DNA of 64,000 nucleotides from Actinomycetes bacterium (GCA_029782355.1 JAKOUY010000036.1:2193-66192), one strand, 5' to 3'; numbered from the stretch's first letter, positions 7,410-56,021 are shown. The notes: generated by a model not told the origin, from the sequence alone. Translations and numbers: made by a program.

Positions 7410-8042
7410 CTAGCGGAAGTCGAGCTCGGCGCGGTTGGAGCGCTTCAGCTCGGCCATCCCGCTGGAGGTGGCGATCAGCTCGACCGCATCCCACAGGCGC
7501 ACGGCGTGCTCGCCGCGCGGGATCGAGGAGATCACCGGACCGAAGAAGCTGTTCTCCTCCGGCCGACCCGGGTGGAAGGTCAGGATCGGGGTGCCGACGT
7601 CCTTGCCGGTGCGCGCCAGCGCCAGCTCGGTGGCGGCGCGAATGGCGGCGTCGTGCGACTCGTCGTCGATCGCCGCGGCCACGGCCGGGTCGAAGCCGTG
7701 CTCGCCGAGCAGGGTCGCCCACCCCGCAGCCGGGTCGGCCTTCAGCTCAGCGGCGCGGCGCTGGCGATGGATGAACTCACCGGCGGCGGTGTAGAAGCGA
7801 TCGACGGCCTCGTTGCCGTGCGCGGCCTCGAGGGCGCCGGCGATGCGCAGGCCGGCATGTCCGACTGCCTGGCTCCGGCGACGCTCCGGGTCGACATCGG
7901 CAGCAGCCTCGTTGAGGATCTTCAGCGAGATCGGCCGCCAGACGACCTGGTAGTCGCGCTGCTCACGAACTTCCACGACCCACCGGGACGTGACGTAGGC
8001 GAACGGTCAAATCGGGTCGAAGAAGAACTCGAGATCTGCCAC
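7410..8042 (-). CDS. DsbA-like thioredoxin-fold protein (Rv2466c / mycothiol-dependent reductase-like) with in-frame TGA at 8007..8009: candidate selenoprotein
   Basis: The track ORF 7410..7976 starts at a GTG. Reading upstream in the same frame gives GTG(8042) VADLEFFFDPI-TGA-PFAYVTSRWVVEVREQ.. with no other stop. The TGA aligns with the first Cys of the FDPLCPWCWITSRW motif of Rv2466c-type proteins (recalled from memory). Downstream motifs also match: ISLKILNE, DVGTP, FFGPVISSIPRGE, ELKR. Confidence 0.6.
7974..7992 (-). promoter_or_regulatory. SECIS-like hairpin downstream of the TGA at 8007..8009
   Basis: Coding-strand sequence CACGUCCC-GGU-GGGUCGUG: 4 bp, a U.U mismatch, then 2-3 bp, with GGU at the apex. 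The stem starts 14 nt after the UGA. Confidence 0.4.
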
Positions 8043-8068
8043 GTGGCCAGGCTACCGGTGCGGCCCGA

Positions 8069-11000
8069 TCAGGTGCGGGCGATCTCCCGCTCCTCGAAGG
8101 TCTCGATGATGTCTCCCGGCTTGAGATCCTGGAAGTCGGACAGGCCGATGCCGCACTCGAAGCCCTCGCGGACCTCGCGGACGTCGTCCTTGAACCGGCG
8201 CAGCGATTGGATCGAGCCCTTCCAGATGATCGTGCCGTCGCGCAGGAAGCGGACCTTCGAGCCACGGGTGATCTGCCCGCTGAGCACGTAGCACCCGGCG
8301 ATGGCGCCGATCCGCGGCACCCGGAAGATCTCGCGGACCTCGGCCTCGCCGGTGATCACCTCTTCGAACTCGGGGGCGAGCATGCCGACCATGGCCCGCT
8401 CGATGTCCTCGAGCAGCTTGTAGATGATCTCGTACAGGCGGACCTCGACGTGCTCGGCCTCGGCCATCTCCCGGGCCTTGCGGTCCGGGCGGACGTTGAA
8501 CCCGATCAGCGTGGCATTGGTGGTGGCCGCCAGGCTGATGTCGTTCTCGGTGATCGACCCCACACCACGGTGGACGAACGCCAGCTTGACGTCGTCGCGC
8601 TCCAGGCGGCGCAGCGACTCGGTGACGGCCTCCAGCGAGCCCTGCACGTCGGCCTTCAGCACCAGGTTCAAGGTGGCGACCTCGCCGGCCTGGATCTGGC
8701 TGAAGATGTCCTCCAGCTTGACGCCCCGCTGGACGCGGGCATCGCCACGCTGAGCCTTGAGCCGCTGGCGCTGCTCACGGGCCTCGCCCACGGTGCGGGC
8801 GGTCTTCTCGTCGGCGGCGGCACGGAACTCGTCGCCGGCGTTCGGCACGCTCTGCAACCCGAGCACCTGCACCGGGGTCGACGGGCCGGCCTCCTTGATC
8901 TGCTGACCCTTGTCGTCGATCATCGCCCGGACCCGGCCCCACGCCGCGCCGGCCACGATCGGGTCGCCGACCTTCAGCGTGCCCTTGTCGACCAGAATCG
9001 TGGCCACCGGGCCGCGGCCGACGTCGAGGTTGGCCTCCAGGACGATGCCCTTGGCCCGCCCGGTGGGATTGGCGGTCAGCTCCTCCAGCTCGGCGACGAC
9101 GACGAGTTGGGCGAGCAGATCATCGACCCCGAGGTTCTGCTGGGCGGACATCTCCACGGTGATCGTGTCGCCACCCCACGACTCGGGCACCAGCTCCTGC
9201 TCGGAGAGCTGGGAGAGCACCCGCTGGACGTCGGCGTTGTCCTTGTCGATCTTGTTGATCGCCACGACGATGGGCACCTCGGCGGCGCGGGCGTGGTTGA
9301 TCGCCTCCACCGTCTGGGGCATCACGCCGTCGTCGGCGGCCACCATCAGCACGACGATGTCGGTCACCTGCGCGCCACGGGCGCGCATCTTGGTGAACGC
9401 CGCGTGACCCGGGGTGTCGATGAAGGTCACCTCGCCCTCCGGCGTGGCCACCTTGTAGGCGCCGATGTGCTGGGTGATGCCGCCGGCCTCGCCGGCCACC
9501 ACGTTGGCGTTGCGGATCCGGTCGAGCAGGGTGGTCTTGCCGTGGTCGACGTGACCCATCACGGTCACCACCGGCGCCCGAGGCACCTGCGAAGCCTCGT
9601 CCTCGTCGTCGCTGTCGTCGAACAACGCCTGCAGCTCGAGCTCCTCCTGCTGGCCGGGTTCGACCAACAGCAGGTCGGCGCCGATCTCCAGGGCGAAGAG
9701 CTCCATCTGCTCGTCGGAGAGGGTCATCGTGGCGGTGACCATCTCGCCGTTCTGCATCAGGAAGCGGATCACGTCGGCCGGGGTGCGGTTCAGCTTGGGA
9801 GCGAACTCCTGGCTGGACACCCCCCGCTCGACCACGATGGTGCCCTCCGGCACCGGGGCCGAGGAGGCGGTGTACGACGAGTTGTAGTTGGGCTGCAACT
9901 CGTCGAAGTCACGGCGACGACGAGCGCGGCTCTTCTTGCGCGGTGCCCGGCGCTGGCCGCTCGGGCGACCGCCGCCACCGCCTGGCGGGCCACCAGGCCC
10001 GCCGGGACGCGGGCCGAAGCCGCCACCGGGACGCGGGCCACCGGGGCCACCACCCGGACGCGGTCCGAAGCCACCGGGCCGCGGGCCGCCAGGACCGCCG
10101 GGCCGGCCGCCGACACCGGCGGGGCGCGGTCCGCCCGGACGCGGCGCGCCCGGACCACCGGGGCGGGCCGTGTAGCTGCCGGGTCGGGACTGCGGGCGAG
10201 CCGAACCGGGCGGCGGCGGGATCGGGCGACCGGATGCCGACAGCGGGCGACCCACGCCGGGCGGCGGCGGGATCGGGCGACCGGATGCCGACATCGGCCG
10301 GGGTCCGGGGGTCGGAGGCATGCCGGGCGGTGGGGCCGCCGGACGTACAGCGGGGCCGCCGGCTGCTGCCGGCGGGCGCGGCGCGGCGGACGGCGGCGGC
10401 CCGGACGGGCGCGGCGCGGCCGGACGGGGCGGCTCGGCGCTCGGCCGGCTGCTGACGATGCGTCGCGGCTCGTCGTCGGTCGGTGCCGTCGACGCCGACC
10501 CGGCGGGGGCCGGCATGTCGGCCGGGCTCGCCGCGGCCGGGGCCGCGCTCCGGGCGGGCGCGGCGGGGGCTGCGGTTCGGGCGGGCGCGGCGGGCGGAGC
10601 CGGGGGCGTCTCGGCCACCGGGGCCGGTGACGGGGCGGAACTCGGCGCCGGCGCGGGCTCGGGAGACGGGCTCGGCGGGGCGGCCACCTCGGGGACCGCC
10701 GCCGGAGCCGGGGTCGGCGGGGCGGCGGGCGGGGTCTCGACGGGCACCGCCGGGGCGGGGGCCGGGGACGCCTCGGTGACGGCATGCTCGGCGACCGGCG
10801 CACCCGGCACCTCGGCGTCGGCCGGCGCGGCGTCAGCGGTGGCCTTCTTCGGGGCGGCCTTCTTCGCCGCAGCCTTCTTGACCGGCTTGGGCTCCTCGGG
10901 CTGCTCCGGGCGGGTCAGGCCGTCGCGCTCGGCGCGGCGACGCAGCCGGTCGGCCTGGGCCTCGATCAGTGTCGAGGAATGGCTCTTCACGCCGACGCCC

Positions 11001-11071
11001 ATGCGGTCGGCCAGCTCCATCATTTCGGTGTTCGTCATGCCGAGCTCTTTGGCCAGCTCGTGCACGCGCAT
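8069..11071 (-). CDS. infB: Translation initiation factor IF-2
   Basis: ORF 8069..11275. Start set at ATG 11071 ([20 protein letters not shown], the canonical IF-2 N-terminus) with AAGGAAAGG upstream. Long Pro/Ala/Gly-rich linker. GTPase motifs [21 protein letters not shown]. Confidence 0.95.
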
Positions 11072-11088
11072 GTTCTTCGCCAAGCCTG

Positions 11089-11424
11089 TCAGCCTTTCCT
11101 TGGCTCTGCTGGTCCGGGAACGGCGTCCCGGGCCGTTGATGATGTTCGCACGTCGGCGCCAACCGGTCCGAACGAGATGAGCAATCCGTCGAGCGCCCCG
11201 GCGTCGAGCGGACGCCGCCACGCCCGCTCGAAGGCCTTGCGCCGCCGGGCGGTGTCCAGGCACGCGGCCGAGCACAGCCAGGCCCCACGCCCGGGGGCGG
11301 TGCGGCTGACCTCGGCACCGGCGGGACCGACCACGCAGCGCACCAGGCGCGCCTGGACGTCGCGTCGCCGGCAGCCGATGCAGGTCCGCAGCGGTTGGCG
11401 GGGCTCACTCGCTCGGTGCGTCAC
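11089..11424 (-). CDS. ylxR: YlxR/RnpM family (DUF448) RNA-binding protein
   Basis: ORF 11089..11424. It has the RTCIGCR motif and sits between nusA and infB. The exact start is uncertain because it overlaps the nusA end. Confidence 0.75.
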   Translation of the reverse strand: MTHRASEPRQPLRTCIGCRRRDVQARLVRCVVGPAGAEVSRTAPGRGAWLCSAACLDTARRRKAFERAWRRPLDAGALDGLLISFGPVGADVRTSSTARDAVPGPAEPRKG

Positions 11425-12562
11425 CGGCCTCCGTCGTCGCCGGGGCCGCCACGGCGGTCTCGGCCTGTTGGTTCCACTCGGCCTGGGTCAGCACCGTGCC
11501 GTCGGCGGCGTGCCACTCCATCTCGCCGGTCTCGGCGTTGGCCACCCACTCGCCCTCTTCGTAGTCGGCGTCGTCCTCGTAGACCTCGACCGGCTGGGTC
11601 TCGCCGCGGATGTCGATGCGCACGCCGGTCAACCGGGCGGCCAGCCGGGCGTTCTGGCCCTCCTTGCCGATGGCCAGGCTGAGCTGGTGGTCGGGGACGA
11701 TCACGTCGGCCTGGCTCAGGTCATCGGCGATGATCACCTCTTTGACCTTGGCCGGCGACAGGGCCTTGGCGACGAAGTCGGCCAGGTCCTCGCTGAACGG
11801 GACGATGTCGATCTTCTCGCCGCGCAGCTCGTTGACGACCATCCGAACCCGGCCGCCACGTGCCCCGACGCACGCCCCGACCGGATCGACGTTGTGGTCG
11901 TTGCTCCAGACGGCGATCTTCGTGCGATGACCTGGCTCCCGGGCGCAGGCCTTGATCTCCACGATGCCGTCGGCGATCTCCGGCACCTCCAGCTCGAACA
12001 GCCGCTTGATCAGTCCCGGATGGGTCCTGCTGACCACGATCTGGGGGCCCTTGGCGGTCTTGCGGACCTCGACGATGTAGGCCTTGACCCGGTCGCCGGT
12101 GGACGGGCGCTCGTGGGGCACCTGCTCGGCCTTGGGCATCAGCGCCTCGACCCGACCGAGATCGATCAGGGTGTAGCGCTCGTCGCTCTGCTGGATGATG
12201 CCGGTGACGATGTCGCCCTCGCGGTTGGCGTACTCCTCGAACTTGCGGTCGCGCTCGGCCTCGCGGATCCGCTGGCTCATCACCTGGCGGAAGGTCTGGG
12301 CGGCGATCCGGCCCAGTTCGTCCTTCTTCGGCGTGTCGTCGCGCTCGTTGATCCAGTTGCCGTCCTCGTCGACGTCGTAGGCGATGAACGTGAACTCCAT
12401 GGTGTCCGGGTTGACCTCGACGACGACCTCCTCGGCCGCACCGGGACGTCGCTTGTAGGCGGTCGCCAGGGCGTCGACGAGCACGTGCAGCAGGGTGTCG
12501 ACGGAGATGTTCTTCTCCATCGCCAGCATGCGGATCGCTTCGGACATGTCAAGGCTGCTCAT
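11405..12562 (-). CDS. nusA: Transcription termination/antitermination factor NusA
   Basis: In ORF 11405..13126 from ATG 12562 ([25 protein letters not shown]). It has S1 and KH regions (GDIVTGIIQQ.., GACVGARGGRV, AIGKEGQNARLA). The ATGA overlaps the rimP stop. Confidence 0.95.
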   Translation of the reverse strand: MSSLDMSEAIRMLAMEKNISVDTLLHVLVDALATAYKRRPGAAEEVVVEVNPDTMEFTFIAYDVDEDGNWINERDDTPKKDELGRIAAQTFRQVMSQRIREAERDRKFEEYANREGDIVTGIIQQSDERYTLIDLGRVEALMPKAEQVPHERPSTGDRVKAYIVEVRKTAKGPQIVVSRTHPGLIKRLFELEVPEIADGIVEIKACAREPGHRTKIAVWSNDHNVDPVGACVGARGGRVRMVVNELRGEKIDIVPFSEDLADFVAKALSPAKVKEVIIADDLSQADVIVPDHQLSLAIGKEGQNARLAARLTGVRIDIRGETQPVEVYEDDADYEEGEWVANAETGEMEWHAADGTVLTQAEWNQQAETAVAAPATTEAGDAPSE

Positions 12563-13104
12563 CAGGCCCCTTTCACGGCGGCGGGCTTGGGCGCCTTCGG
12601 CCCCTTGCCCGGCTTGGGCGCCGGCCCCCAGGCGAACACGGTGCGGGCGCGGTCGATGTGGTCGTAGGACAGAGTGCGCTCCTCGCCGGCGGCAGCAGCC
12701 GGCTCGGTGAGGCGCACGGTGACGGTGGCGTCGTCGGCGGCCAGCAGGTCGCCCTGCAGGCGGCGCTGGTCGTTGACGACGTCGCGCAGGCGGATCGCCA
12801 CCGTCTTGCCGATCTCCCGGCGGTAGTGCGCCGGGGTCCGCAGCGCCCGTTCCAGTCCCGGGCTGGACACCTCCAGCGTGTAGCGCCCCGGGAGCGGGTC
12901 GGCCGCGTCGAGCTCCTTGCCGATCAGCCGGCTGGCCAGCGACAGGGTGTCCAGGCTGACCCCACCGGCGCTGCCCGCCGGCGTGTCCAGCGTGACCCGC
13001 AGGACGCCGCCGTGCATCTCCACGTCGTACAGGTCCAAGCGGAGGTCGGCGGCGATCGGGGCGACGAGGCGGGTGACCGTGCTGACGAGTGCGGATTCGG
13101 TCAT
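12562..13104 (-). CDS. rimP: Ribosome maturation factor RimP
   Basis: ORF 12562..13173. ATG 13104 ([14 protein letters not shown]..) is preceded by GGGAGGTG. The [12 protein letters not shown] motif is present. Confidence 0.85.
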
Positions 13105-13134
13105 GGCGGTCACCTCCCGGGGCCATTCATTGAA

Positions 13135-13166
13135 GAAGGCGTGGACCCTGACGAGTCCACGCCTTC
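13135..13166 (-). promoter_or_regulatory. Perfect 12-bp hairpin in the rimP-nusA-infB leader (possible attenuator/terminator)
   Basis: GAAGGCGTGGAC-N8-GTCCACGCCTTC. On the minus-strand transcript it is followed by UUCAAUGAAU and lies about 30 nt upstream of the rimP ATG. Confidence 0.4.
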
Positions 13167-13249
13167 GGTTCATGGAACTTCAAAGGACCCCGGGAGTGTA
13201 CCAGCGGGGACCACGGGTGACGACCGGCCCGGCCAGTAACCTGCCCTCC

Positions 13250-15016
13250 GTGCTGCGCCTCTCCACCCTGTTCGTGCGGACCCTGCGTGAGGATCCGGCC
13301 GATGCCGAGGTGGCCAGCCACCGCCTGCTGGTGCGTGCCGGGTACATCCGCCGGGCGGCACCGGGGGGGTTCAGCTTCCTGCCGCTCGGATGGTCGGTGT
13401 ACCGCAACGTCGAGCGGGTGGTCCGCGAGGAGATGGACCGCGCCGGCTTCCAGGAGGTCCACTTCCCGGCGCTGCTCCCCCGCGAGCCCTACGAGCAGAC
13501 CGGACGGTGGACGGAGTACGGCGACGGCATGTTCCGGCTCAAGGACCGTCGGGACAACGACCTGCTGTTGGCCCCGACCCACGAGGAGATGTTCACCCTG
13601 CTGGTCAAGGACCTGTACAGCAGCTACCGGGACCTGCCGCTGTCGATCTACCAGATCCAGACGAAGTACCGCGACGAGCCCCGGCCGCGCGCCGGGCTGC
13701 TGCGAACCCGCGAGTTCGTGATGAAGGACTCCTACAGCTTCGACGTCGACGACGCTGGCCTGCAGGCCAGCTACGACCGTCACCGGGTGGCTTACCAACG
13801 GACCTTCGAGCGTCTCGGCCTCCCCTACGTCATCGTCTCGGCCATGAGCGGGGCCATGGGCGGGTCGGCCAGCGAGGAGTTCCTCGCTCCCCTGCCCGCC
13901 GGGGAGGACACCTTCGTGCGCTGCCCGTCGTGTGGCTACGCGGCCAACACCGAGGCCGTGCAGGCCCGCCCGCCCGATCCCCGGCCGGTGGACGGGCTGC
14001 CCGAGGCGGTGGTCTCCGACACGCCGGGCACGCCCACGATCCAGACCCTCGTCGACCTGTTCAACGGGCGCGACGACCTCCGCCGCCCGGACCGCTCGTG
14101 GACCGCCGCCGACACCCTGAAGAACCTGGTGGTCACGCTCCGGTACCCGGACGGGCGCAACGAGCCGCTGGCCATCGGGGTACCCGGCGACCGCGAGGTC
14201 GATCTCAAGCGGGTCGAGGCCCAGGTCGCCCCGGCCGAGATCGAGCCGTTCAGCGACGCCGACTTCGCCGCCAACCCGGCGCTGGCCAAGGGATACATCG
14301 GTCCCGGCGCGCTGGGCCTCGAGCGCGCCAGCGCGATCCGGTACCTGCTCGACCCACGCATCGTCACCGGCACGGCCTGGATCACCGGCGCCGACCAACC
14401 CGGCCGGCACGTCCACGGCCTGGTCATGGGCCGGGACTTCACCGGCGACGGCGTCATCGAGGCCGCCGAGATCCGCGACGGCGACCCGTGCCCGACGTGC
14501 GGGTCGCCGATGGAGATCGCCCGGGGCATCGAGATCGGGCACATCTTCCAGCTCGGCCGGCGCTACGCCCAGGCCCTCGGCCTGACCGTGCTCGACCAGA
14601 ACGGCGCGACCCAGGTGGTCACCATGGGCTCCTACGGAATCGGCGTCACCCGGCTGGTGGCGGCCGTGGCCGAGCTGAACTGCGACGGGCGCGGCCTGGT
14701 CTGGCCCCACGAGGTGGCCCCCGCCGACGTGCACATCGTGGCCACCGGCAAGCCCGGCGATCCGCAACTCCCCGCCGCCGAGCAGCTCGCCGCCGACTGC
14801 GAGGCAGCCGGGCTACGCGTCCTGCTCGACGACCGGGTCGGGGTGTCCCCGGGCGTCAAGTTCAACGACGCCGAACTGCTCGGCATGCCGACCATCGTCG
14901 TCGTCGGCCGCGGCCTGGCCGACGGCGTGGTCGAGGTCAAGGACCGCCGCACCGGGGAACGCACCGACGTCCCCCTGGCCGACGCCGTCGCCCACCTCTC
15001 GGCCCCCCGCACCTGA
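13250..15016 (+). CDS. proS: Proline--tRNA ligase
   Basis: In ORF 12917..15016. GTG 13250 gives [35 protein letters not shown], the canonical bacterial ProRS N-terminus. ATG 13172 is an alternative start. Class II motifs and an insertion domain are present. Confidence 0.9.
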
Positions 15017-15271
15017 CCGGGCTCGCCGGCCCCCTCACCGGCCCCCTCCCCCCCAACCCCCTCCCGGCACCTGGTCGGGCTCGCCGGTGCCCTCACCGGC
15101 CCCCTCCCGCCGTTCGTGTCGTGACAAGAACGCGACGTCGGCAACTTGTCACGACAAGAACGAGCCGGGGGGCGGCCGGGGGAACCTGGGCGGGGCGGGG
15201 GCGGGGGCGGGGGGAACCTGGGCGGGGGCGTGGGTTCGGGTTGGGGGCGGGGGCGTTGGTAGAACAGGCGC
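15010..15271. repeat. Structured intergenic element: C-tract direct repeats, a 12-bp perfect inverted repeat, and G-tract direct repeats
   Basis: A ~41-bp direct repeat occurs at 15010..15050 and 15068..15108 (cacctgRYcgggctcgccggYSccctcaccggccccctccc). The inverted repeat is TGTCGTGACAAG (15117..15128) / CTTGTCACGACA (15145..15156), around a spacer containing CGACGTCG. GGGGAACCTGGGCGGGG occurs twice (about 15178 and 15211), embedded in G-runs. Confidence 0.7.
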
Positions 15272-16117
15272 ATGCCGTTGAACCCGCACGCCGTCGGAAC
15301 CACCACCGAGCCCTCCCCCGCATCGTGGACCAGCACGGACGCCCTGCTGTACGCCGTCGGCATCGGCGGGACGACCGACGAGTTGGCCTACACCACGGAG
15401 AACACCAGCGGGGTCGACCAGCAGGTCTACCCGACGTTCCCGGTGGTGGTCAGCACCGGGAACGCCCAGGCCTTCGCCAACATCGGCACGTTCAACCCGG
15501 CGATGCTGGTCCACGGATCGCAGGCCGTCACCCTGTACAAGCCGCTGCCGGTGAACGGTCGCGTCCACGTGACCACCACGATCGCCAACATGTGGGACAA
15601 GGGCAAGGCCGGGGTGGTGGTCCTGGAGAACTCGGCCACCGACGACGCCGACGGCGAGCTGCTCTACACCACGACGATGTCGGCCTTCATCCGCGGCGAG
15701 GGTGGCTGGGGCGGCGAGCGGGGACCGAGCGGGCCGCAGAACGTGCCACCGGACCGCGCCGCTGACGAGACGGTGACGTACCAGACGTCACCGAACCAGG
15801 CCCTGACCTACCGGCTGTCCGGCGACCGAAACCCGCTGCACAGCGACCCGAGCTTCGCCGCCATGGGCGGCTTCCCGACGCCGATCCTCCACGGGCTGTG
15901 CACCTACGGGTTCACCGGCCGAGCACTGCTGCACCGCCTCTGCGGCGGCCAGTCGGCCAACTTCCGGCACATGGAAGGTCGCTTCGCCAGCCCGGTGATC
16001 CCCGGCGAGGAGCTGACCGTGCGGATCTGGCGCACCGGCGACGGGGAGGCGGTCTTCACCACCTCCGTCGGCGACCGAGTCGTGATCGACCAGGGCCTCT
16101 GCCGCTACTCGAGCTGA
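15272..16117 (+). CDS. MaoC-like (R)-specific enoyl-CoA hydratase, double hot-dog
   Basis: ORF 15272..16117. It has the YRLSGDRNPLHSDP hydratase-2 motif and an N-terminal degenerate hot-dog half. Confidence 0.85.
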   Translation: MPLNPHAVGTTTEPSPASWTSTDALLYAVGIGGTTDELAYTTENTSGVDQQVYPTFPVVVSTGNAQAFANIGTFNPAMLVHGSQAVTLYKPLPVNGRVHVTTTIANMWDKGKAGVVVLENSATDDADGELLYTTTMSAFIRGEGGWGGERGPSGPQNVPPDRAADETVTYQTSPNQALTYRLSGDRNPLHSDPSFAAMGGFPTPILHGLCTYGFTGRALLHRLCGGQSANFRHMEGRFASPVIPGEELTVRIWRTGDGEAVFTTSVGDRVVIDQGLCRYSS

Positions 16118-16136
16118 CCTCCCCGTCAGCCGCCCG

Positions 16137-17054: not shown

Positions 17055-17128
17055 GGCACCGAGTGTAGGAACCGACCGCCCCCGCCGGCGTGCTCGGCAG
17101 GGTGTGCCGGACGTCGTATCGTCGTGGC

Positions 17129-27681: not shown

Positions 27682-29352
<1,671 letters not shown>

Positions 29353-29445: not shown

Positions 29446-30774
29446 ATGTCGGGCATGCTGATCACGGCGCTGGCCGCCGCGGGAACGCTGGTGGCACCGC
29501 TGGGCGTGGCACAACACCAGCCACGGTCGTCCGCCGCCGGCTGCGCCACCGTCGTGAGGCCGGGAGCCGACGTCACGGCCGCGCTGGGCGACGCGCTGGT
29601 CGCCGCCAGCGCCGAGCCGGACCCCCGAGTCGTCGGGCCCGCCGGCGCTCCCCAGGGTCGGGTGTACCTGCCGGCGGGCGAGTACGGGCTGTCCCAGGTG
29701 ACGGTGCCCTCCAACGTCCGCCTGGAGATCGACCCGGGGGCGACCCTGCACCCGGTGCCGACCAGCCGCCCGACGCGGGGGCGCGATTGGGGCATGTTCG
29801 TGTTCGGGACGCCCGACCAGCCAACTCGCAACGTCACGGTGGTGGCCGGTGACGGCTGCGGCGGGCCGGGCACCCCGACCGCGGCGAACAAGCCGGCGTC
29901 GACCGACTTCCGCGGCAACCTCCCGGAGACGGGCATGCACAACATGGCCGTGCCACTGGCCGGATGGAACACCGAGGCGATGTGGGTCCTCGACGTCGAC
30001 CCGGGACACTGGCAGGTCGACGAGCAGGTCACCGGCTTCCTGCTGCACTGGGCCCTCGACGTCGAGATCGGGTCGGTGTTCTCCATCCAGAACCCGGCTC
30101 GCCAGCCCACCGGGATCGGGCCGGTCCCCGGCGTCACCAGCCGGACGACCGTCATGATGTTCGACCCGCACGAGGGGATGCCCGTGCCGGCCGACGAGGC
30201 CGACGCCCGGCTCCCGCAACGGATCCACGTCCACGACCACTACAACATCCTCTCGCCGTCCGGCCAGGGACCGAACCAAGTCCGCTCGTGCATCGACTGC
30301 CGCTTCGAGCGGATCTTCAGCCACGGAGGCGTGGCCCTGCGGATCGAGACCGACGGGATCCGCCGGGTGACCGACTGCACGGCCACCGGTCCCAATGGTC
30401 AGGGGTTCACCACCTACGCCATCGTCGACCGCCTCGTGGCCGAGGACATCGTCGGCGCTGACGGCAATCGCGCCGCGATGTTGACCCCGCACTGCCTGGA
30501 CAGCGGGGTGGTGACCGTCCGCCGGGTCACCGGCTACAGCGAGTTCCAGACCGCGGTCGCCGCAGCCCGCGACCGGGGCAGCCGCTCGGGCGGGTTCGCC
30601 GCCGGCAGCCGGATCGACGAGGTGCGCGCCTGTCCCGGCGACGCCGCCCAGGAGCCGCACCCCGATCGGGACAGCTACCTGCCGGCGACCTCGCAGGTCG
30701 CCGTCGTGGACGCCTCGCCCACGGTCGTGGTGACCCCGGCCCTGCCCTGGCCGGGGTGCGTCAACCCACCGTGA
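29446..30774 (+). CDS. Hypothetical secreted protein (signal peptide; possibly beta-helix-like)
   Basis: The last 442 aa of the artefactual ORF 26974..30774, from ATG 29446 (MSGMLITALAAAGTLVAPLGVAQ). I recognise no family. Confidence 0.5.
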   Translation: MSGMLITALAAAGTLVAPLGVAQHQPRSSAAGCATVVRPGADVTAALGDALVAASAEPDPRVVGPAGAPQGRVYLPAGEYGLSQVTVPSNVRLEIDPGATLHPVPTSRPTRGRDWGMFVFGTPDQPTRNVTVVAGDGCGGPGTPTAANKPASTDFRGNLPETGMHNMAVPLAGWNTEAMWVLDVDPGHWQVDEQVTGFLLHWALDVEIGSVFSIQNPARQPTGIGPVPGVTSRTTVMMFDPHEGMPVPADEADARLPQRIHVHDHYNILSPSGQGPNQVRSCIDCRFERIFSHGGVALRIETDGIRRVTDCTATGPNGQGFTTYAIVDRLVAEDIVGADGNRAAMLTPHCLDSGVVTVRRVTGYSEFQTAVAAARDRGSRSGGFAAGSRIDEVRACPGDAAQEPHPDRDSYLPATSQVAVVDASPTVVVTPALPWPGCVNPP

Positions 30775-34134: not shown

Positions 34135-34731
34135 GTGCGCACCCGGACCGCCGCGGCACGTCTCGCCGCCTGCATCGCCGGGTCGGCGCTCGTGCTCGGG
34201 GCGTGCGGCGACGCGCCGGCTCGGACCGGCTCGGGCGCCACGGTGCCGCGATCGGCCACGGTGACCGGGGCGCCGGCGATGACCGCCCAGCCGGCCACGG
34301 TGCCGGCCGGGGCCACGCCCGGCACCGCCGTGGAACCGCTGCGCTTCTCGGCCACGCTCGTCGACGGCTCGACCCTCGATCTGGCCACGCTGTCGGGCAC
34401 GCCGGTGGTGCTGTGGTTCTGGGCGCCCACTTGAGGCGTGTGCAACCGGGAAGCCCCCTCGGTCGAGGCGGCCAGCGCTCGGTGGGCCGGTCGGGCCCGC
34501 TTCATCGGCGTCGCCTGGAACGGGGACCACGCCGCGTTCCAGGCCTTCGTCGACCAGCACCACCTGACCTTTCCGCAGATCGCCGACCCGGATGGGGACG
34601 TCTTCGCCCGCTTCGGGATCCCCGCCCAGCCGGCCATGGCGATCATCGACCGCCACGGCCTGGTGGCCCGCCAGCTCGGTCCGATCGAACCGGCCACCCT
34701 CGACCAGGCCCTGACCACGGCAGGAGGCTGA
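34135..34731 (+). CDS. TlpA/ResA-like thiol-disulfide oxidoreductase lipoprotein with in-frame TGA at 34432..34434 (UGVC in place of CxxC): candidate selenoprotein
   Basis: The tail of ORF 33589..34434 from GTG 34135 (VRTRTAAARLAACIAGSALVLGACGD, a lipobox) and ORF 34438..34731 are in the same frame, separated only by TGA-GGC. The joined sequence reads ..PVVLWFWAPT-U-GVCNREAPSVEA..F.GVAW..FPQIADPDG..F....PA.AIID, i.e. the WxxWCxxC..E.P redoxin signature with Sec at the first Cys. Confidence 0.6.
34453..34472 (+). promoter_or_regulatory. SECIS-like hairpin downstream of the TGA at 34432..34434
   Basis: GCCCCCUC-GGUC-GAGGCGGC: 4 bp, one C.C mismatch, then 3 bp, with a GGUC apical tetraloop. The stem starts 18 nt after the UGA. 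Confidence 0.4.
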
Positions 34732-36810: not shown

Positions 36811-38845
<2,035 letters not shown>

Positions 38846-45493: not shown

Positions 45494-45497
45494 CCCC

Positions 45498-46457: not shown

Positions 46458-46954
46458 CTGTTCGCACTCCCACGCTGCTGGTCGTGCTGATGGGGTCGCC
46501 GGCCGACCGTGAGCACGCCGCAGCCGTCGTCGCCATGGCCGAACGGCTGGGCCTGACCGTTGAGCAGCGGGTCGGCAGTGCGCACAAGACGCCCCGTCAT
46601 GTGCTCTCGATCATCGAGCAGTACGAGGCCGATCCGCGCCCGACGGTCTGGGTGACCATCGCCGGGCGCTCCAACGCCCTGTCGGCGTTCGTCGATGCCG
46701 CGGTGGGCGCCCCGGTCATCGCCTGCCCCCCGCCCGGTCCGCCCGACGATCTGTGGTCGAGCGTGCGGATGCCGGCCGACGTGGCCCCGATGCTGGTGCT
46801 CGACCCGGCCAATGCGGCGCTGGCTGCGGCCAAGATCCTCGCCCAGCACGATCCCGCCATCGCCGAGCGCCTGGCCCACTACCGCACCGCCACGTTCGGC
46901 CGTGTCGTCGAGGCCGACCGCGCCGGGCGCGCCGGCGGCGAGAAGCGGGACTGA
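46454..46954 (+). CDS. purE: PurE family protein, class II-like (AIR carboxylase type)
   Basis: From ATG 46454 (ATGA overlap with the purC stop), 166 aa. LMGSPADRE, SAHKTP, IAGRSNALSAF, PVIACPP and DLWSSVRMP resemble the AIRc domain of animal PAICS (VAGRSNGLGPV..PVISCPP..DVWSSLRLP, recalled from memory). They do not resemble class I PurE (SAHRTP, GGAAHLPG). Confidence 0.75.
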   Translation: MTVRTPTLLVVLMGSPADREHAAAVVAMAERLGLTVEQRVGSAHKTPRHVLSIIEQYEADPRPTVWVTIAGRSNALSAFVDAAVGAPVIACPPPGPPDDLWSSVRMPADVAPMLVLDPANAALAAAKILAQHDPAIAERLAHYRTATFGRVVEADRAGRAGGEKRD

Positions 46955-46955
46955 C

Positions 46956-48356
46956 GTGTGCGGGGTGCTCGGGCTCTCCACGCCACACGGTGACGGGGTG
47001 GCCAGCATGGCCTTCTTCGGCCTGTACGCCCTGCAGCACCGCGGCCAGGAAGCCGCCGGGATCGCCGTCAGCGACGGGCAGCGGGCCCGGCTGCACAAGG
47101 ACGCCGGGCTGGTGGCCAACGTCTTCAACCCCGACCGCCTGGCGCCGCTCACCGGCTACCACGCCATCGGCCACACCCGCTACAGCACCACCGGTGGCAG
47201 CGGAGCGCGCAACGCCCAGCCGTTCCTGGTCGAGACCATGCACGGCCCGATGGCCCTGGCGCACAACGGCAACCTGGTCAACGCCCCGGCGCTGCGGGCC
47301 GAGCTGCTGTCGCGCGGCTTCGGGCTGACCGCCAGCAGCGACACCGAGGTGATGACGCTGATGCTCACCTCGGCCGGCGGGCGCGACTGGGAGGAACGCC
47401 TCGAGCGCACCCTGCCGGCCTGGAAGGGGGCCTACAGCCTGGTGATCCTGACCCACGACCGGGTCCTCGCCGCCCGTGACCCATGGGGCTTCCGGCCGCT
47501 GTCGATCGGCCGCTTGCCCGATGGCGGCTGGGCGGCGGCGTCGGAGACCTGCGCCCTGCTGACCCTCGGGTGCAGCGACGTGGCCGAGGTCGAGCCGGGC
47601 GAGATCGTCACGCTGCAGGGCAGCGAGCTGCGCCGCCGGCGGCTGTTCGCCAGTGGGCGCCCGGCGCACTGCAGCTTCGAGTTCGTCTACTTCAGCCGGC
47701 CGGACAGCACCTGGGCGGGCAGCAACGTCCACCATGCCCGCCAGCGCCTCGGCGAGCGGTTGGCCGCGGAGAGCCCGGTGGATGCCGACGTCGTCGTGCC
47801 GGTGCCGGACAGCAGCATCCCGGCAGCCATCGGCTACAGCCACGTCAGCGGGGTGCCGTTCAACGACGGGCTGATCAAGAATCGCTACATCGGGCGGACC
47901 TTCATCGAGCCCGCCCAGGCCCAGCGCCAGCGCGGGGTGGCGCTGAAGTTCAACGCCCTTGCGGAGAACCTGGCCGGCAAGCGGGTGGTGATGATCGACG
48001 ATTCGCTGGTCCGCGGCACGACGGCCGGACCGCTGGTCAAGCTGGTTCGCGACGCCGGGGCCACCGAGGTCCACCTGCGGATCACCTGCCCGCCCATCAC
48101 CCACGCCTGCCACTTCGGCGTCGACATGGGCCACGACGGCGACCTGATGGCCGCCCGCCACGACGTCGAGGAGATCCGCCGGCACATCGGCTGCGACTCG
48201 CTGGCGTTCCTCAGCCTGGCGGGCATGCTGGCCGCCATCGCCGGCCCGGAGCCGGCCGGCGGTTCGGGCCTGTGCACCGCCTGCTTCACGGGCGACTACC
48301 CCGTCCCGGTGGAGGAGGCCCCGGTGAAGCTGGCCTTCGAGGGAGCGCTGCGCTGA
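46956..48356 (+). CDS. purF: Amidophosphoribosyltransferase
   Basis: In ORF 46695..48356 from GTG 46956, giving (M)CGVLGL with the N-terminal catalytic Cys. LQHRGQE, GHTRYST, and the PRTase loop VVMIDDSLVRGTT are present. Confidence 0.9.
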   Translation: MCGVLGLSTPHGDGVASMAFFGLYALQHRGQEAAGIAVSDGQRARLHKDAGLVANVFNPDRLAPLTGYHAIGHTRYSTTGGSGARNAQPFLVETMHGPMALAHNGNLVNAPALRAELLSRGFGLTASSDTEVMTLMLTSAGGRDWEERLERTLPAWKGAYSLVILTHDRVLAARDPWGFRPLSIGRLPDGGWAAASETCALLTLGCSDVAEVEPGEIVTLQGSELRRRRLFASGRPAHCSFEFVYFSRPDSTWAGSNVHHARQRLGERLAAESPVDADVVVPVPDSSIPAAIGYSHVSGVPFNDGLIKNRYIGRTFIEPAQAQRQRGVALKFNALAENLAGKRVVMIDDSLVRGTTAGPLVKLVRDAGATEVHLRITCPPITHACHFGVDMGHDGDLMAARHDVEEIRRHIGCDSLAFLSLAGMLAAIAGPEPAGGSGLCTACFTGDYPVPVEEAPVKLAFEGALR

Positions 48357-50544
48357 TGCACGTCGTCGTGCTCGGTTCGGGCGGGCGGGAGCACGCCATC
48401 GCCTGGCACGTCGCCCGCCACGGGCACCGGGTTGAGGTGTGCGACTCGATCCACTCGGCAGTCGGCGCCCACCCGGACCTGGTCATCGTCGGGCCCGAAT
48501 CACTGCTGGCCGCGGGGGCCGCCGACCGCTGCACGGCAGCCGGCATCGCCTGCTTCGGCCCCACCGCAGCGCTGGCCCGGTTGGAGACCTCCAAGGCCGA
48601 CGGCCGTGACCTGGCGGCCCGCCTGGGCATCCCCATCCCCCGCTACCGCACGCACCCCGACGCGCCCAGCGCGCTCGACGCGTGGCGCGCCGACGGATGC
48701 CCCCCGGTGGTGGTCAAGCAGGACGGCCTGGCGGCCGGCAAAGGCGTGGCCGTCCCGGACGGTCCGGCCGAGACCGAAGCCGCCATCGTCGCCCTCGGCG
48801 CTGCCGGGCCGCTGGTGGTCGAGCAGCGCATGAGCGGCCCGGAGCTGACCCTCCTGGCCGTCTCCGACGGGCGTCGCGCCGTGGCGCTGCCGCTGGTGCA
48901 GGACCACAAGCGGATCGGCGAGGGGGACACCGGACCGAACACGGGTGGCATGGGCGCGGTGGCCCCCGTCGACCTCGGCCTCGACCCGGCGGCCCTGACG
49001 GCCACGTTCGTCCAGCCGGTCATCGATCACCTCGCCGCCGCCGGGACGCCCTACATCGGGGTGCTGTACGCCGGGCTGATGCTCACGGCGGGCGGGCCTC
49101 GACTGGTGGAGTACAACTGCCGCTTCGGGGATCCCGAGGCCCAGGCCGTCCTGGCGCTGCTGGATGCCGACCTGGCGGCTCTGGCGATGGCCTGCGTCGA
49201 GGGTCGGCTCGACCCCGCCATGGTGACCACCCGAGCCGGGGCAGCCTGCACGGTGGTGGCCGCCGCCCCCGGCTACCCGGACTGCCCGCAGCTCGGCGGC
49301 ACGGTGCGCCTCGACGGCCGCCCGCTGCCCGACGGCAGCGTCGAGCTGGCCGAGGGCGTGGTGCTGCACCCGGCGGGAGTGTGCCGCGGCACGGTCACCG
49401 GCGGGCGGGTGCTGTCGGTCACGGCCACTGCAGCCGACCTCGGTCGGGCCCGACAGCAGGCGTACGACGCGCTGGCGCGCATCGAGCTCGACGGCGTCCA
49501 GGTGCGCGGCGACATCGGCTGGCGGGCCCGGGCGGCGGGCATCGCCACCTACTCGGCGACCGGGGTGGACATCGACGAAGGCAATCGGGCCGTCCGCTCC
49601 CTGGCCGCGGCGGTCGAGGCGACCCACGGCCCTGCCGTGCTGCGCGGCGTCGGCAGCTTCGGCGGGGCCTTCTCCGCCGCGGCGCTGGTCGCCATGGACG
49701 ATCCGGTGCTGGTCGGCTCCACCGACGGCGTCGGCACGAAGGTCGAGCTAGCCGCCCGGGCCGGGCGCTACGCCGGGGTCGGCCAGGACATCGTCAACCA
49801 CTGCATCGACGACGTCCTCGTGCAGGGGGCTCGCCCGCTGTTCTTCCTCGACTACATCGCCGCCGCCCGGATCCGCGCCGAGCAGGTCGCCGAGGTCGTC
49901 GGCGGCATGGCCGCGGCCTGCGCGGCCGGTGGGTGTGCGCTGCTGGGCGGGGAGACCGCCGAGATGCCGGGCGTCTACCACGACGGCCACTTCGACATCG
50001 CCGGCACGCTGGTGGGTGCGGTGGAGCGGGCCGACCTGCTGCCCCGCCCGACGGTGGCCGCCGGCGACGTCCTGGTCGGCCTGGCCTCCAGCGGAGCGCA
50101 CACCAACGGGTACTCGCTGCTGCGCAACCTGTTCGCCTGGCTGCCCCTCGACGCCCAGCCGGCCCCGCTCGATCGCCCGCTGGTCGACGCCCTGCTCGAG
50201 CCGCACCGTTCGTACCTCGACGTCCTCGGCCCGCTGCTCGACCACCCGGCGCTGAAGGCCCTGGCCCACATCACGGGCGGCGGGCTGCCGGAGAACCTGC
50301 CTCGGGTCCTGCCCGAGGGGGTCCACGCCGAGATCCAGCTCGGCTCGTGGCCGCTGCCACCGCTGTTCGAGCTGGTCACCCAGGTCGCCACGACCATGCC
50401 GGTTGAGGAGCTGTACCGGACCCTCAACATGGGCATCGGCATGGTCGTGGTCACCGATCGGCCGGAGGAGATCCGAGCCGCCATCGCCGAGCCGAGCTGG
50501 ATCATCGGGCGCCTGGTGCCCGGCCGGCGCGGGGTCACCCTGCG

Positions 50545-50548
<4 letters not shown>
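48356..50548 (+). CDS. purD-purM: Fused phosphoribosylamine--glycine ligase (PurD) / AIR synthase (PurM)
   Basis: In ORF 47483..50548 from ATG 48356, 730 aa. The PurD part has VVVLGSGGREHA, DHKRIGEGDTGPNTGGMG, EYNCRFGDPE and GDIGWRA. It continues directly into the PurM part: YSATGVDIDEGNRAV, GTDGVGTKV, LGGETAEMPG, AHITGGG. Confidence 0.9.
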
Positions 50549-52666
<2,118 letters not shown>

Positions 52667-52681
52667 TCGCCGGAGCGCGGC

Positions 52682-53710
52682 TCAGGCCGTGGACGGGCCT
52701 TCCCACAGGTTGATGCCGGAGTCGACGGCGTGGCGGTCGATCTCGGCCAGCTCGTCGTCGGTCAGCGGGGGGCCCGACAAGGCGTCGAGGTTGGTGTCGA
52801 GCTGGGCCACCGAGGAGGCACCGATCACCGCCGAGGACACCCGCGGGTCGCGCAGGACCCACTGCAGGGCCAGCTGGGCGAGCTGCTGGCCACGGCGGGC
52901 GGCGATGCGCTGCAGGGCCCGGACCCGATCCAGCACCGCCTCGTCGAGCCCGGTCAGGGTCGAGTTGGGCCGGGCGGCGCGGGAGTCCGACGGCACCCCG
53001 CCGAGGTACCGGTCGGTCAGCAGCCCCTGGGCCAGGGCGGTGAAGACGATGCAACCCATGCCCTGGCGCTCGAGCTCGTCCAGCAGCCCGCCTTCGATCC
53101 ACCGGTTCAGCATCGAGTACGACGGCTGGTGGATGAGCAGCGGGGTGCCCAGGCGACGGGCGATGTCGGCGGCCTCGGCCGTGCGCTGCGCCGAGTACGA
53201 GGAGATCCCGACGTACAGCGCCTTGCCGGAGCGCACGGCGGTGTCCAGCGCGCCGATGGTCTCCTCCAGCGGGGTGTCCCGGTCGAAGCGGTGGCTGTAG
53301 AAGATGTCGACGTAGTCCAGGCCGAGGCGACGCAGCGACTGGTCGAGCGACGCCAGGACGTACTTGCGCGAGCCGCCTCCCTGGCCGTAGGGGCCCGGCC
53401 ACATGTCCCAGCCGGCCTTGGTCGAGATGATCAGCTCGTCGCGGTACGGTCGGAAGTCGTCGGCCAGGTAACGGCCGACGTTCTCCTCCGCCCGGCCGTA
53501 CGGCGGGCCGTAGTTGTTGGCCAGGTCGAAGTGGGTCACGCCGCGGTCGAAGGCCCGCCGCAGGATGGCTCGCTGGGTCTCCTCCGGACGGTCGGTGCCG
53601 AAGTTCTGCCACAACCCGAGCGACAGCGCCGGGAACCGCAGCCCGCTGCGGCCCACCACCCGGTAGGTCATCTGGTCGTAGCGGTCCTCGGCTGCCTGGT
53701 AGCTCACCAC
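52682..53710 (-). CDS. Aldo/keto reductase (YghZ / Kv-beta-like, L-glyceraldehyde-3-phosphate reductase type)
   Basis: In ORF 52682..55129 from GTG 53710 (VVSYQAAEDRYDQMTYRVVGRSGLRFPALSLGLW). DLANNYG, the STKAGW pattern and DIFYSHR are present. Confidence 0.85.
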   Translation of the reverse strand: MVSYQAAEDRYDQMTYRVVGRSGLRFPALSLGLWQNFGTDRPEETQRAILRRAFDRGVTHFDLANNYGPPYGRAEENVGRYLADDFRPYRDELIISTKAGWDMWPGPYGQGGGSRKYVLASLDQSLRRLGLDYVDIFYSHRFDRDTPLEETIGALDTAVRSGKALYVGISSYSAQRTAEAADIARRLGTPLLIHQPSYSMLNRWIEGGLLDELERQGMGCIVFTALAQGLLTDRYLGGVPSDSRAARPNSTLTGLDEAVLDRVRALQRIAARRGQQLAQLALQWVLRDPRVSSAVIGASSVAQLDTNLDALSGPPLTDDELAEIDRHAVDSGINLWEGPSTA

Positions 53711-53826
53711 GCCATTGTGCTCGACGGGTCGCTCCGACCGGCATCCACCACCGGGTTCGGCGAACGGGTGATCTACGCTGGGTCTCGGGGACGCCGCTCG
53801 GGTCGGCTCCCGTTCCGGAGGTTGCC

Positions 53827-54138
53827 ATGTCCACCGCAGAAGGTTCCGATGTTGCCGCTCGCCTGCGCGACGACCTGGCTCGAGCCGTCGAGCAACGCGA
53901 CCAGCTGGAGGCCGAGTACCAGCAGTGCCTCGAGGATCCCGACGTCCTCCAGGAGGATCGCGACTCGGTGCGGACCCTGCTGGAAGGGGCGCGTGGCGCC
54001 GTCGAACACGCCGAGCGGGCCTTGCAGCGGGTGGAGAGCGGTGAGTACGGCACCTGCTCGGTCTGCGGCAAGCCGATCGGCGCCGCCCGGCTCGAGGCAC
54101 TGCCGGAAGCCACCACCTGCGTGAACTGCACCCCGTGA
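53827..54138 (+). CDS. TraR/DksA family C4-type zinc-finger protein
   Basis: ORF 53827..54138. A coiled-coil-like N-terminus is followed by CSVCGKPIG..R...P....CVNC. Confidence 0.75.
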   Translation: MSTAEGSDVAARLRDDLARAVEQRDQLEAEYQQCLEDPDVLQEDRDSVRTLLEGARGAVEHAERALQRVESGEYGTCSVCGKPIGAARLEALPEATTCVNCTP

Positions 54139-54148
54139 TCCGCCGCCG

Positions 54149-55189
54149 ATGAGCGGACCGTCGATCGAGCTGCCGAGCGACGACCCCGAGGCCCTGTACG
54201 AGCTGTTCGAGCGGCACGGGTGGGGTGACGGCCTGCCGCTGGTCGCCCCGACCGCGGCGCGGGTCGAGGCAATGCTGGCCGAGGGCGCGCCCGGACAGGA
54301 CCCCGACGAGGTCGTCGCCGTGCTGGAGCCGCGCCGTGGTCTGGCCACCCGGCGGATCATCGCCGTCAATGCCGTGCTGGCCGGGTGCCGGCCGGCCCAG
54401 CTCCCCGTCGTGCTCAGCGCAGTGCGCGCCCTGGCCCGCCCGGAGGTCAACCTGCGCGGGGTCAACGCCACCACCCACCCGGTCGCTCCGCTGCTGATCG
54501 TCCACGGGGCCGTCGTCCACGGCGCCGGGTACCGCTACGCCAGCGGCGCCCTGGGCCCCGGCAACCGGGCCAATGCCACCACCGGGCGGGCGGTACGGCT
54601 GATCCTGACCCATGTCGCCGGGGCCACGGTGGGCGACGGTGATGCGTCCACGCAGGGCGGGCCGGCGAAGTACGGCTTCTGCGTCGCCGAGCACGAGTCC
54701 GCCTCCCCGTGGGGTGGGTTCGCCGCCGGGCGCGGGGTGCGCGCCGCCTCGGCCGTCACCGTGCACTGTGGTGAGGGCCCGCACAACGTCCACGACATGG
54801 AGCACGGCGATCCGCAGCTGATCCTCGACAAGCTGGCCTCGGCCATGGCCACCCTCGGCCAGAACAACGCGTGCATCAGCCAGGGCGAGTACGTCGTGCT
54901 GCTCTGCCCGGAGCATGCCGCGGCGATGGCCGCCGCCGGGCTCGACCGGGCGACCATCGCCGAGCGCCTGTGGGAGCGGGCCCGGCACCCGGCGGCGCTG
55001 CTGCGCCGGCACTTCGCCACGCTGGCGTGGGCGCCGTGGATGATGGCGGCCGGCGACGACGACCTGCTGCCGATGACCGAGTCTCCCGCCAACATCCTGG
55101 TGCTCGTCGTGGGCGGCGCGGGCAAGCACTCCTCGATCGTTCCCAGCTGGGGCATGACCCGCAGCGTCACCCTGGCCGTCGAGCCATGA
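54149..55189 (+). CDS. Conserved hypothetical protein (family not recognised)
   Basis: ORF 54149..55189, 346 aa, with coding-like composition. It lies 10 nt after the DksA-like gene and about 20-35 nt before the UGSC gene. Distinctive N-terminal GWGDGLPLVAPT segment. Confidence 0.5.
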   Translation: MSGPSIELPSDDPEALYELFERHGWGDGLPLVAPTAARVEAMLAEGAPGQDPDEVVAVLEPRRGLATRRIIAVNAVLAGCRPAQLPVVLSAVRALARPEVNLRGVNATTHPVAPLLIVHGAVVHGAGYRYASGALGPGNRANATTGRAVRLILTHVAGATVGDGDASTQGGPAKYGFCVAEHESASPWGGFAAGRGVRAASAVTVHCGEGPHNVHDMEHGDPQLILDKLASAMATLGQNNACISQGEYVVLLCPEHAAAMAAAGLDRATIAERLWERARHPAALLRRHFATLAWAPWMMAAGDDDLLPMTESPANILVLVVGGAGKHSSIVPSWGMTRSVTLAVEP

Positions 55190-55208
55190 CGGCGATCGGC
55201 GATGATGG

Positions 55209-56021
55209 ATGGCGGGAGGTTCGATGCTGATCTACGAGCCGTGCGGATCGATCGCCGGGGAGGATGGTGCGCCACGGCGCACGCCGGGCATCCGCCCGTC
55301 ACTGGTCGGGCGGCGCCTCGGCGTGCTCGACAATGGCAAGCCCAATGCCGGCGTGGTGCTCGGTGCCATCGCCCAGACCCTGGTCGGTCGGCACGGCGCC
55401 GTGGCCGGACTGGTCACCGGCAAGGGCCCAGGTGCCAATGCGGCCACCGCCGCCCGTCCGGAGGTCCTCGCCCGGCTGGGCGACGAGGTCGACGTCACGC
55501 TGGTGGGCTCGGCCGATTGAGGGAGCTGCACGTCGTGGAGTGTCCACGACGCCGTCGAGCTGGAGGGCCGCGGAGTCACCGCGCTCGTCGTGACCACCCC
55601 ACCGTTCCTCTCGCTGACCCGCCGGGTCGCCGCCGAGCTGGGGCGTGCGGACCTGGCCGTGCTCGTCGTCCCCCACCCGTTGGGCGGCACCGATCCGGAC
55701 GAGGTGCGCCGGTGGGGCGCCGAGTCGGCCGAGATCGCCGCCCGAGCGCTCGCCGGGACACCCGTGCCCGGATCGGACCAGGCCGAGCCGGCGCGCTTGG
55801 CCGATCTGCAGCAGACGCTGCGCCAGGACGGCGCCGAACTGCGCCTCGAGCGCATCGAGGGTGGCGTCGCCCACCTCACCCTGGAACTCGCCGACGCCCG
55901 CTGCGCCGAGTGCGTCATGCCCGCCGAGTTCATCGAGCGGTTGGCCGGCGCGGCCCTGGCGGCCGAGATCGACGGGCTGGGCGGCGTGGTCGTCCACGAT
56001 CCGCGACGGGAGGACCGATGA
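55209..56021 (+). CDS. UGSC-motif protein with a NifU-like C-terminal domain and in-frame TGA at 55518..55520: candidate selenoprotein
   Basis: ORF 55209..55520 and ORF 55590..56021 are in the same frame with no stop between them other than the TGA. The joined sequence reads ..VDVTLVGSAD-U-GSCTSWSVHDAVELEGRGVTALVVTTPPF.. The C-terminus (LRLERIEGGVAHLTLELADARCAECVMP) is NifU/Nfu-like. ATG 55224, preceded by GGGAGG, is the more likely start. Confidence 0.6.
55531..55551 (+). promoter_or_regulatory. SECIS-like hairpin downstream of the TGA at 55518..55520
   Basis: CGUCGUGGA-GUG-UCCACGACG: a perfect 9-bp stem (or 8 bp with an AGUGU loop). It starts 10 nt after the UGA. Confidence 0.5.

Follow-up and report, generated by a model that had tools for sequence, protein, structure and literature searches.

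The window analysed here is a 64,000-nucleotide stretch of an Actinomycetes bacterium assembly (GCA_029782355.1 JAKOUY010000036.1:2193-66192), and positions are counted from its first letter. It contains three genes, referred to as g1, g2 and g3, in each of which the reading frame runs through a single TGA triplet at the position of a redox-active cysteine, with a short hairpin following within the coding sequence. These are very probably genuine bacterial selenoprotein genes, in which UGA stands for the nucleophilic Cys and is accompanied by a selenocysteine insertion sequence (SECIS) hairpin. The genes, the codons predicted to specify selenocysteine (Sec, U) and the candidate SECIS hairpins are listed below.

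7410..8042, minus strand: g1 gene, predicted Rv2466c-like / DsbA-like selenoprotein of 210 codons with a GTG start, reading ...FFDPI-U-PFAY..., active site D-P-I-U-P-F-A
8007..8009, minus strand: predicted g1 Sec codon UGA (codon 12), aligned with the Cys of homologs
7973..7993, minus strand: candidate g1 SECIS hairpin UCACG-U-CCC-GGU-GGG-U-CGUGG, GGU loop at 7982-7984, 22 nt past the UGA
34135..34731, plus strand: g2 gene, predicted DsbE/DsbF (TlpA/ResA)-like thiol-disulfide oxidoreductase selenoprotein, reading ...WFWAPT-U-GVCNREAPSVE..., active site W-A-P-T-U-G-V-C
34432..34434, plus strand: predicted g2 Sec codon UGA (residue 100), first Cys of CxxC
34453..34472, plus strand: candidate g2 SECIS hairpin GCC-C-CCUC-GGUC-GAGG-C-GGC, GGUC loop at 34461-34464, 26 nt past the UGA
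55224..56021, plus strand: g3 gene, predicted UGSC-family selenoprotein, reading ...VGSAD-U-GSCTSWSVHD...
55518..55520, plus strand: predicted g3 Sec codon UGA (residue 99), where the UGSC motif opens
55531..55551, plus strand: candidate g3 SECIS hairpin CGUCGUGGA-GUG-UCCACGACG, GUG loop at 55540-55542, 19 nt past the UGA

TGA otherwise behaves as an ordinary stop codon in the window, as a first-pass annotation of this DNA had claimed: it terminates 42 of the 53 gene models, seven of them in an ATGA context. Across the approximately 18,000 codons of these models, the only in-frame stops are the three TGAs at 8007-8009 (minus strand), 34432-34434 (plus strand) and 55518-55520 (plus strand). That annotation had placed all three at Cys-equivalent positions, and both the coordinates and the frame proved correct, with coding sequence on either side of each triplet. 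It had also described the proteins as unrelated, which is accurate in that they belong to separate families, although all three are of the thiol-oxidoreductase type. Additionally, Logan assemblies of run SRR15686344 (L001 and L002) were identical to the window across g1 and g3 (100% identity, no mismatch). Two six-frame scans of the window for further read-through candidates returned only neighbouring genes in the same frame. The TGAs at 38843, 63204, 27682 and 48354 were considered as Sec codons and rejected, being ordinary stops between adjacent genes that share a frame.

The g1 gene is located between infB and rbfA-truB, and this infB/rbfA/truB context is also present in L002-L004. Its translation matches Pfam PF22234 with 144.5 bits (cutoff 27) over profile positions 1-180 of 180, and the DxxUP motif is present as D-P-I-U-P. 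In alignment A1, U is aligned with the Cys of FFDP[VI]-C-P-[WF]-A in 26 of 26 full-length homologs. The gene-caller product for g1 is shorter, with 188 residues from a GTG at 7976 (P0001). M. tuberculosis Rv2466c has a CPWC dithiol, which is absent from g1: the window gene reads U-P-F-A and its homologs C-P-[WF]-[AS], with no second Cys. Ala replaces the second Cys (U/C-P-[WF]-A) in g1 and nearly all Acidimicrobiia homologs; nearly all of those in A1 carry C-P-[WF]-A or C-P-[WF]-S, and the whole clade, Sec or Cys, represents a one-thiol or one-selenol variant.

For the comparison of g1 loci, a scan of species-representative genomes provided 80 loci among the matches listed, and two further assemblies containing shortened database homologs were compared as well. 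The codon was TGA in 6 of the 80 species-representative loci listed and in the 2 other assemblies (L003, L004, L019, L036, L046, L047, L081 and L082), whereas 69 other loci have TGC or TGT there; species carrying the Sec form are interspersed with species carrying the Cys form. The peptide that follows is the same in both forms (P-[WF]-A-[WY]-[IV]-T-S-R-W-V). The hairpin, in contrast, separates them, with all seven pairs found in 8 of 9 Sec forms versus 1 of 73 Cys forms encoding the same T-S-R-W-V (Fisher p = 2e-9). The Ser codon within the hairpin is UCC in 8 of 9 Sec forms and UCG in 47 of 73 Cys forms. Among the Sec forms, pairing is retained in 98% of cells, and one pair shows a compensatory change, being CG in five sequences and GC in three; this G-C to C-G change consists of two synonymous substitutions and separates two Sec clades. 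The lone Cys-form homolog with a complete Sec-type hairpin (7/7 pairs, ATCACGTCCCGGTGGGTCGTGG) was found in L077, which may represent a recent conversion from Sec to Cys.

The g2 translation scored 63.5 bits with AhpC-TSA and 59.5 bits with Redoxin in Pfam (cutoffs ~26). Among solved structures, the best matches are M. tuberculosis MPT53/DsbE (1LU4, E = 1e-24) and DsbF (3IOS), and U-G-V-C aligns with WCPFC and WCPTC of DsbE and DsbF, respectively, with U at the first Cys. The N-terminus carries a probable lipoprotein signal (..LVLGAC), and judging from its sequence the product is probably an exported lipoprotein. The match to NCBIfam NF041054 (ResA-like WAxxUGC) is partial, at 37 bits against a cutoff of 300, and g2 is not a member of that family.

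In all 80 of the closest metagenomic loci the g2 codon is TGA, and among these 80 nearest relatives the clade WFWAP-x-U-xxC-x-x-E-[AS]-x-S-V-E apparently consists of Sec forms only. The hairpin alignment comprised 58 distinct sequences from these loci, ranging from 47 to 74% GC, throughout which the 12-nt core, CCUCGGUCGAGG (CCUC-GGUC-GAGG), is essentially invariant. The GGUC loop and the two adjoining pairs showed no variation, and the remaining two pairs of CCUC/GAGG were kept in 58/58 sequences (one UG, one UA). Third codon positions are included in this constancy, namely those of Ser UCG, Val GUC and Glu GAG, the last being GAA in one sequence. Over the hairpin, 82% of cells are paired, compared with 32-53% when the partner is slid. 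Furthermore, the lower-stem pair formed by columns 24-39, both of them third codon positions, was observed as CG in 28, AU in 7, GC in 4 and UA in 1. One g2 homolog in the European Nucleotide Archive (ENA; P0222) reads WFWAPG-W-RACKSES. DNA loci with the same peptide context (L143, L145, L152 and others) carry TGA, so the Trp is probably a translation-table artefact.

The g3 translation scored 132.4 bits with Pfam PF24696 (cutoff 25) and 104.5 bits with NCBIfam NF041046, below the equivalog cutoff of 125 (C scored for U). In alignment A2, U is aligned with the invariant Cys C99 of the UGSC family. Among 101 cluster representatives matching the N-terminal half of g3, 72 stop at ..G[ST][AG]D, directly before U. 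Seven further g3 loci (six distinct sequences), fetched from such fragments, encode TGA-GGN-WSN-TGY at this position. In L001, the UGSC gene was called as two fragments of 98 and 143 residues. The g3 hairpin has nine contiguous pairs, and the core UCGUGGA-GUG-UCCA(C/U)GA is common to all g3 Sec forms fetched, which range from 43 to 73% GC. The loop U is contributed by an AGU Ser codon, which accounts for 2.4% of the Ser codons in the window; AGC occupies this position in the single Cys form examined.

Other features of g3 and its surroundings were also recorded. A C-terminal extension of ~90 residues with a CxxC, common to homologs P0124, P0133 and P0188, gave a weak NifU-like match (E = 0.15). 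Scans of viral contigs for UGSC Sec forms returned only chance matches outside open reading frames (ORFs). The gene forms part of a conserved module comprising a ~350-residue protein (54149-55189), the UGSC gene and a short-chain dehydrogenase (56018-56821, ATGA overlap). The ~350-residue protein had no Pfam, NCBIfam or PDB sequence match, and it shares 67% and 35% identity with proteins adjoining two UGSC genes of L171 (2228-6534). In L173-L176, a gene of similar size without a Pfam match precedes the UGSC gene and a dehydrogenase follows it.

The three hairpins share a geometry that had been described beforehand as a stem-loop beginning 10-18 nt downstream, with a G-U-containing loop about 20-30 nt from the UGA. 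The measured positions agree with this description: the stems start 13, 18 and 10 nt after the UGA in g1, g2 and g3, and the loops start at 22 nt (GGU), 26 nt (GGUC) and 19 nt (GUG), respectively. With a 1x1 mismatch allowed, the hairpin energies are -10.0, -9.9 and -13.5 kcal/mol. The published bacterial SECIS (bSECIS) model describes a 3-9 nt loop with G in the first two loop positions (PMC13188914, Fig. 2A legend), a 4-16 bp upper stem, 16-37 nt spacing and a minimum free energy of <= -7.5 kcal/mol (PMC13188914). Loop size, loop G and spacing fit this model in all three genes. As in the Sec-UGA arrangement of E. coli fdhF, each hairpin lies inside the ORF directly 3' of the UGA. The window loops are 3-4 nt long with G followed by G/U, their spacing of 19-26 nt falls within 16-37 nt, and the energies of -9.9 to -13.5 kcal/mol are below the -7.5 threshold. 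Unlike the model, g1 and g2 have three and four uninterrupted pairs under the loop, respectively, followed by a 1x1 mismatch. The window also differs from the fdhF-type system in its 73% GC actinobacterial host, in having no formate dehydrogenase among the three genes, and in giving no Rfam match.

Several results weigh against the interpretation of these triplets and hairpins as a selenocysteine system. A comparison with shuffled GC-rich background had been set beforehand as a refuting test, and by folding energy the hairpins were indistinguishable from it: for the 65 nt after the UGA, dinucleotide shuffles gave z = 0.53, 1.38 and -0.69 for g1, g2 and g3. Folding energy is not discriminating in sequence of 73% GC. 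Under a strict contiguous-stem bSECIS model g3 alone passes, as do 19.6% of background codons, and for this reason the strict model is of no use here. A tighter pattern, set after the three hairpins had been seen, required seven or more pairs with no more than one 1x1 mismatch, a loop of 3-5 nt that begins with G and includes GU, and a spacing of 16-30 nt. Since it was built from them, its match in 3/3 is by construction, and the only informative figures are its background frequencies: 1.35% of the 18,358 in-frame codons, 25 of 1,212 TGA triplets in any frame, and 0 of 42 TGA stop codons. At these frequencies the pattern is rare in the background, and the lack of such a hairpin behind the 42 TGA stops counts in favour of the interpretation. 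The window gave no Rfam match at the gathering threshold, and around the three sites no SECIS family scored at E <= 10; bacterial SECIS elements have poor coverage in Rfam. No covariation was seen in the g3 hairpin among the Sec forms compared, and the conserved SWSVHD peptide dictates part of its stem, so the support for this hairpin is confined to synonymous-site conservation. Finally, selA, selB, selD and tRNA-Sec were not found within the 64-kb window, and no tRNA-Sec was found in 120 fetched flanks.

The shared SECIS geometry proposed in the first-pass annotation is thus real but weakly diagnostic by itself, given the energy test and the 19.6% background. Because energy fails to separate the hairpins from shuffled sequences, it is the comparative data that decide in favour of SECIS elements. 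The UGA occupies the Cys position in each gene, it recurs in relatives, and the hairpins are conserved. The pattern of substitutions argues that the hairpins are maintained as RNA, through synonymous sites and covariation in g1 and g2 and through synonymous sites in g3. The three hairpins have too little sequence in common for a useful joint covariance model.

In the selenocysteine system that we propose, UGA takes the place of the nucleophilic Cys codon within DxxUP in g1, UxxC in g2 and UGSC in g3. The SECIS would be a short hairpin within the coding sequence, beginning 10-18 nt after the UGA, with a 3-4 nt loop that starts with G-G/U and lies 19-26 nt after the UGA. Following the established E. 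coli mechanism, SelB with GTP and Sec-tRNA(Sec) would bind the loop and deliver selenocysteine to the UGA, and all other UGAs in the genome would be expected to terminate translation. Each product would then function as a selenolate-based redox protein.

Other explanations of the same TGAs were considered. TGC becomes TGA by a single base change and the source is a metagenome-assembled genome (MAG), so the triplets could in principle be independent nonsense mutations in pseudogenes, or sequencing or assembly errors at Cys codons. This explanation is effectively refuted by the comparative data, in which TGA occupies the corresponding codon in dozens of other organisms and the protein downstream of the TGA remains under constraint; the independent Logan assembly is identical for g1 and g3, and the ~18,000 codons hold no other in-frame stop. 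Three coincidental nonsense mutations had been judged unlikely in the first-pass annotation, a judgement that the recurrence of TGA in many organisms and the conservation of the hairpins bear out. The genes are not disrupted differently in sister genomes, where this very position holds either TGA or a Cys codon. The TGAs are accordingly interpreted as Sec codons and not as chance nonsense mutations, because relatives repeat them and the hairpins are conserved at synonymous sites in a way that tracks TGA and not TGC or TGT.

A recent loss of the Sec trait would leave relic genes in which TGA terminates, with the sel machinery absent or defective and the products shortened or made from downstream starts. 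The window contains no sel gene or tRNA-Sec, and the 188-residue g1 product from GTG at 7976 (P0001) is what gene callers predict; both would be expected after such a loss. We nevertheless consider it very unlikely, as in all three genes the frames and hairpins are intact and the GC content at third codon positions (GC3) is of coding type before and after the TGA. Three simultaneous relics without any further lesion are improbable, and relatives retain the same arrangement. It is extremely unlikely that the UGA is read as something other than Sec, through near-cognate insertion of Trp or Cys or through hairpin-aided, context-dependent read-through. The W shown at the g2 position in P0222 would suit this explanation, but it is probably the translation-table artefact described above, with TGA present in L143, L145 and L152. 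The sites moreover coincide exactly with the redox Cys of families that are already catalogued as selenoproteins, and the loops match SelB-dependent elements in their G-G/U signature and in their spacing, which falls within 16-37 nt.

Selenocysteine decoding in the window can be compared with that described for related families. DsbA-like form 2 (DxxUP), Redoxin or thiol-disulfide-isomerase-like (UxxC) and UGSC-containing NF041046 are listed as selenoproteins in PMC13188914. Since all three families are already listed, the three genes are new members of known families and represent a modest advance; the current understanding of Sec decoding is not altered. The g1 gene resembles DsbA-like form 2 and the Rv2466c/Mrx-2 family (PF22234) in its D-P-I-U-P motif and its full-length match. 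The g2 gene belongs to the fold family of the Redoxin/Prx-like/thiol-disulfide-isomerase-like UxxC proteins (PMC2398784, PMC13188914), with U replacing the first Cys of CxxC, and resembles M. tuberculosis DsbF (3IOS) in its N-terminal export or lipoprotein signal. It differs from the UxxC families in that its clade is apparently all-Sec among the 80 nearest relatives and in lying outside the NCBIfam WAxxUGC family. The g3 gene shares the UGSC motif and a full-length Pfam match with the UGSC family (NF041046, PF24696), which is mostly Sec-containing, with 255 Sec versus 21 Cys sequences in Global Ocean Sampling (GOS) data (PMC2398784). In contrast to most members, g3 has the C-terminal CxxC extension, which is found in a minority, and it falls below the NCBIfam equivalog cutoff.

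The expectation that the selenoproteome would extend beyond formate dehydrogenase holds for this genome fragment. Its size is, however, not unusual for Acidimicrobiia: Actinomarina (Actinomarinales, another Acidimicrobiia order) is reported to have selA, selC, selD, a divergent selB and ~5 selenoproteins per genome (bioRxiv 10.64898/2026.04.03.716425). In mycobacteria, formate dehydrogenase is predicted to be the sole selenoprotein (PMC13449736); the contrast with formate dehydrogenase therefore holds for mycobacteria and not for the whole phylum. The three genes would place Sec in cytoplasmic and probably extracytoplasmic thiol oxidoreductases of an aerobic-type actinobacterium that uses mycothiol and F420. 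Standard gene callers split or shorten all three genes, as seen in P0001, the UGSC fragments of L001 and the Trp-translated relative of g2, and the redox proteins of this lineage are consequently mis-annotated in a systematic manner. Actinobacterial SECIS elements are missing from Rfam, and the three per-family hairpin alignments could serve as seeds for covariance models of them. We tentatively suggest, as a possibility that we consider rather doubtful at present, that this Acidimicrobiia lineage has a selenoproteome of at least six genes, in which thiol oxidoreductases predominate and which does not depend on formate dehydrogenase, with an obligate-Sec clade of exported DsbE/DsbF-like lipoproteins and a conserved UGSC operon. 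If so, the operon of the ~350-residue uncharacterised protein, UGSC and the short-chain dehydrogenase could form a selenoenzyme system not yet described.

The remaining features of the window concern its host and gene content. The GC content is 72.8%, and the genes identified from their translations suggest an actinobacterium, among them fbiC (F420 synthesis) and the homolog of mycothiol-dependent Rv2466c. Other genes include a rimP-nusA-infB-rbfA-truB-ribF cluster, lpdA-sucB, a lipB-lipA fusion and a purine biosynthesis cluster. The nearest relatives of one window protein are from Ilumatobacteraceae and other Acidimicrobiia MAGs, and the sequence characterizes the fragment as Acidimicrobiia-like and high-GC. 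ARAGORN called a tRNA-Arg of 90 nt at 30640-30729 (minus strand), which was considered as a miscalled tRNA-Sec and rejected, on account of its gcg anticodon, its position within a coding region and the lack of an Rfam tRNA match at the gathering threshold. The tRNA-Arg call is itself probably a false positive, and a coding signature is present on the opposite strand.

Two apparent gene fusions were read from translations: lipB-lipA (octanoyltransferase and lipoyl synthase) at 27682-29352 on the minus strand, and purD-purM at ~48410-50548 on the plus strand. A sigma-factor-like gene (59341-59892) is followed downstream by an ORF at 58339-59319 (minus strand) whose translation contains a long tract rich in Pro and Thr, in which PPTTRPTAP units recur; the frame signal there is weak. 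In addition, a perfect 14-bp hairpin, GAAGGCGUGGACUC-GUCA-GGGUCCACGCCUUC (13135-13166, minus strand; -27 kcal/mol), is located between proS and rimP, where it falls in the leader of the rimP-nusA-infB operon or in its first codons.

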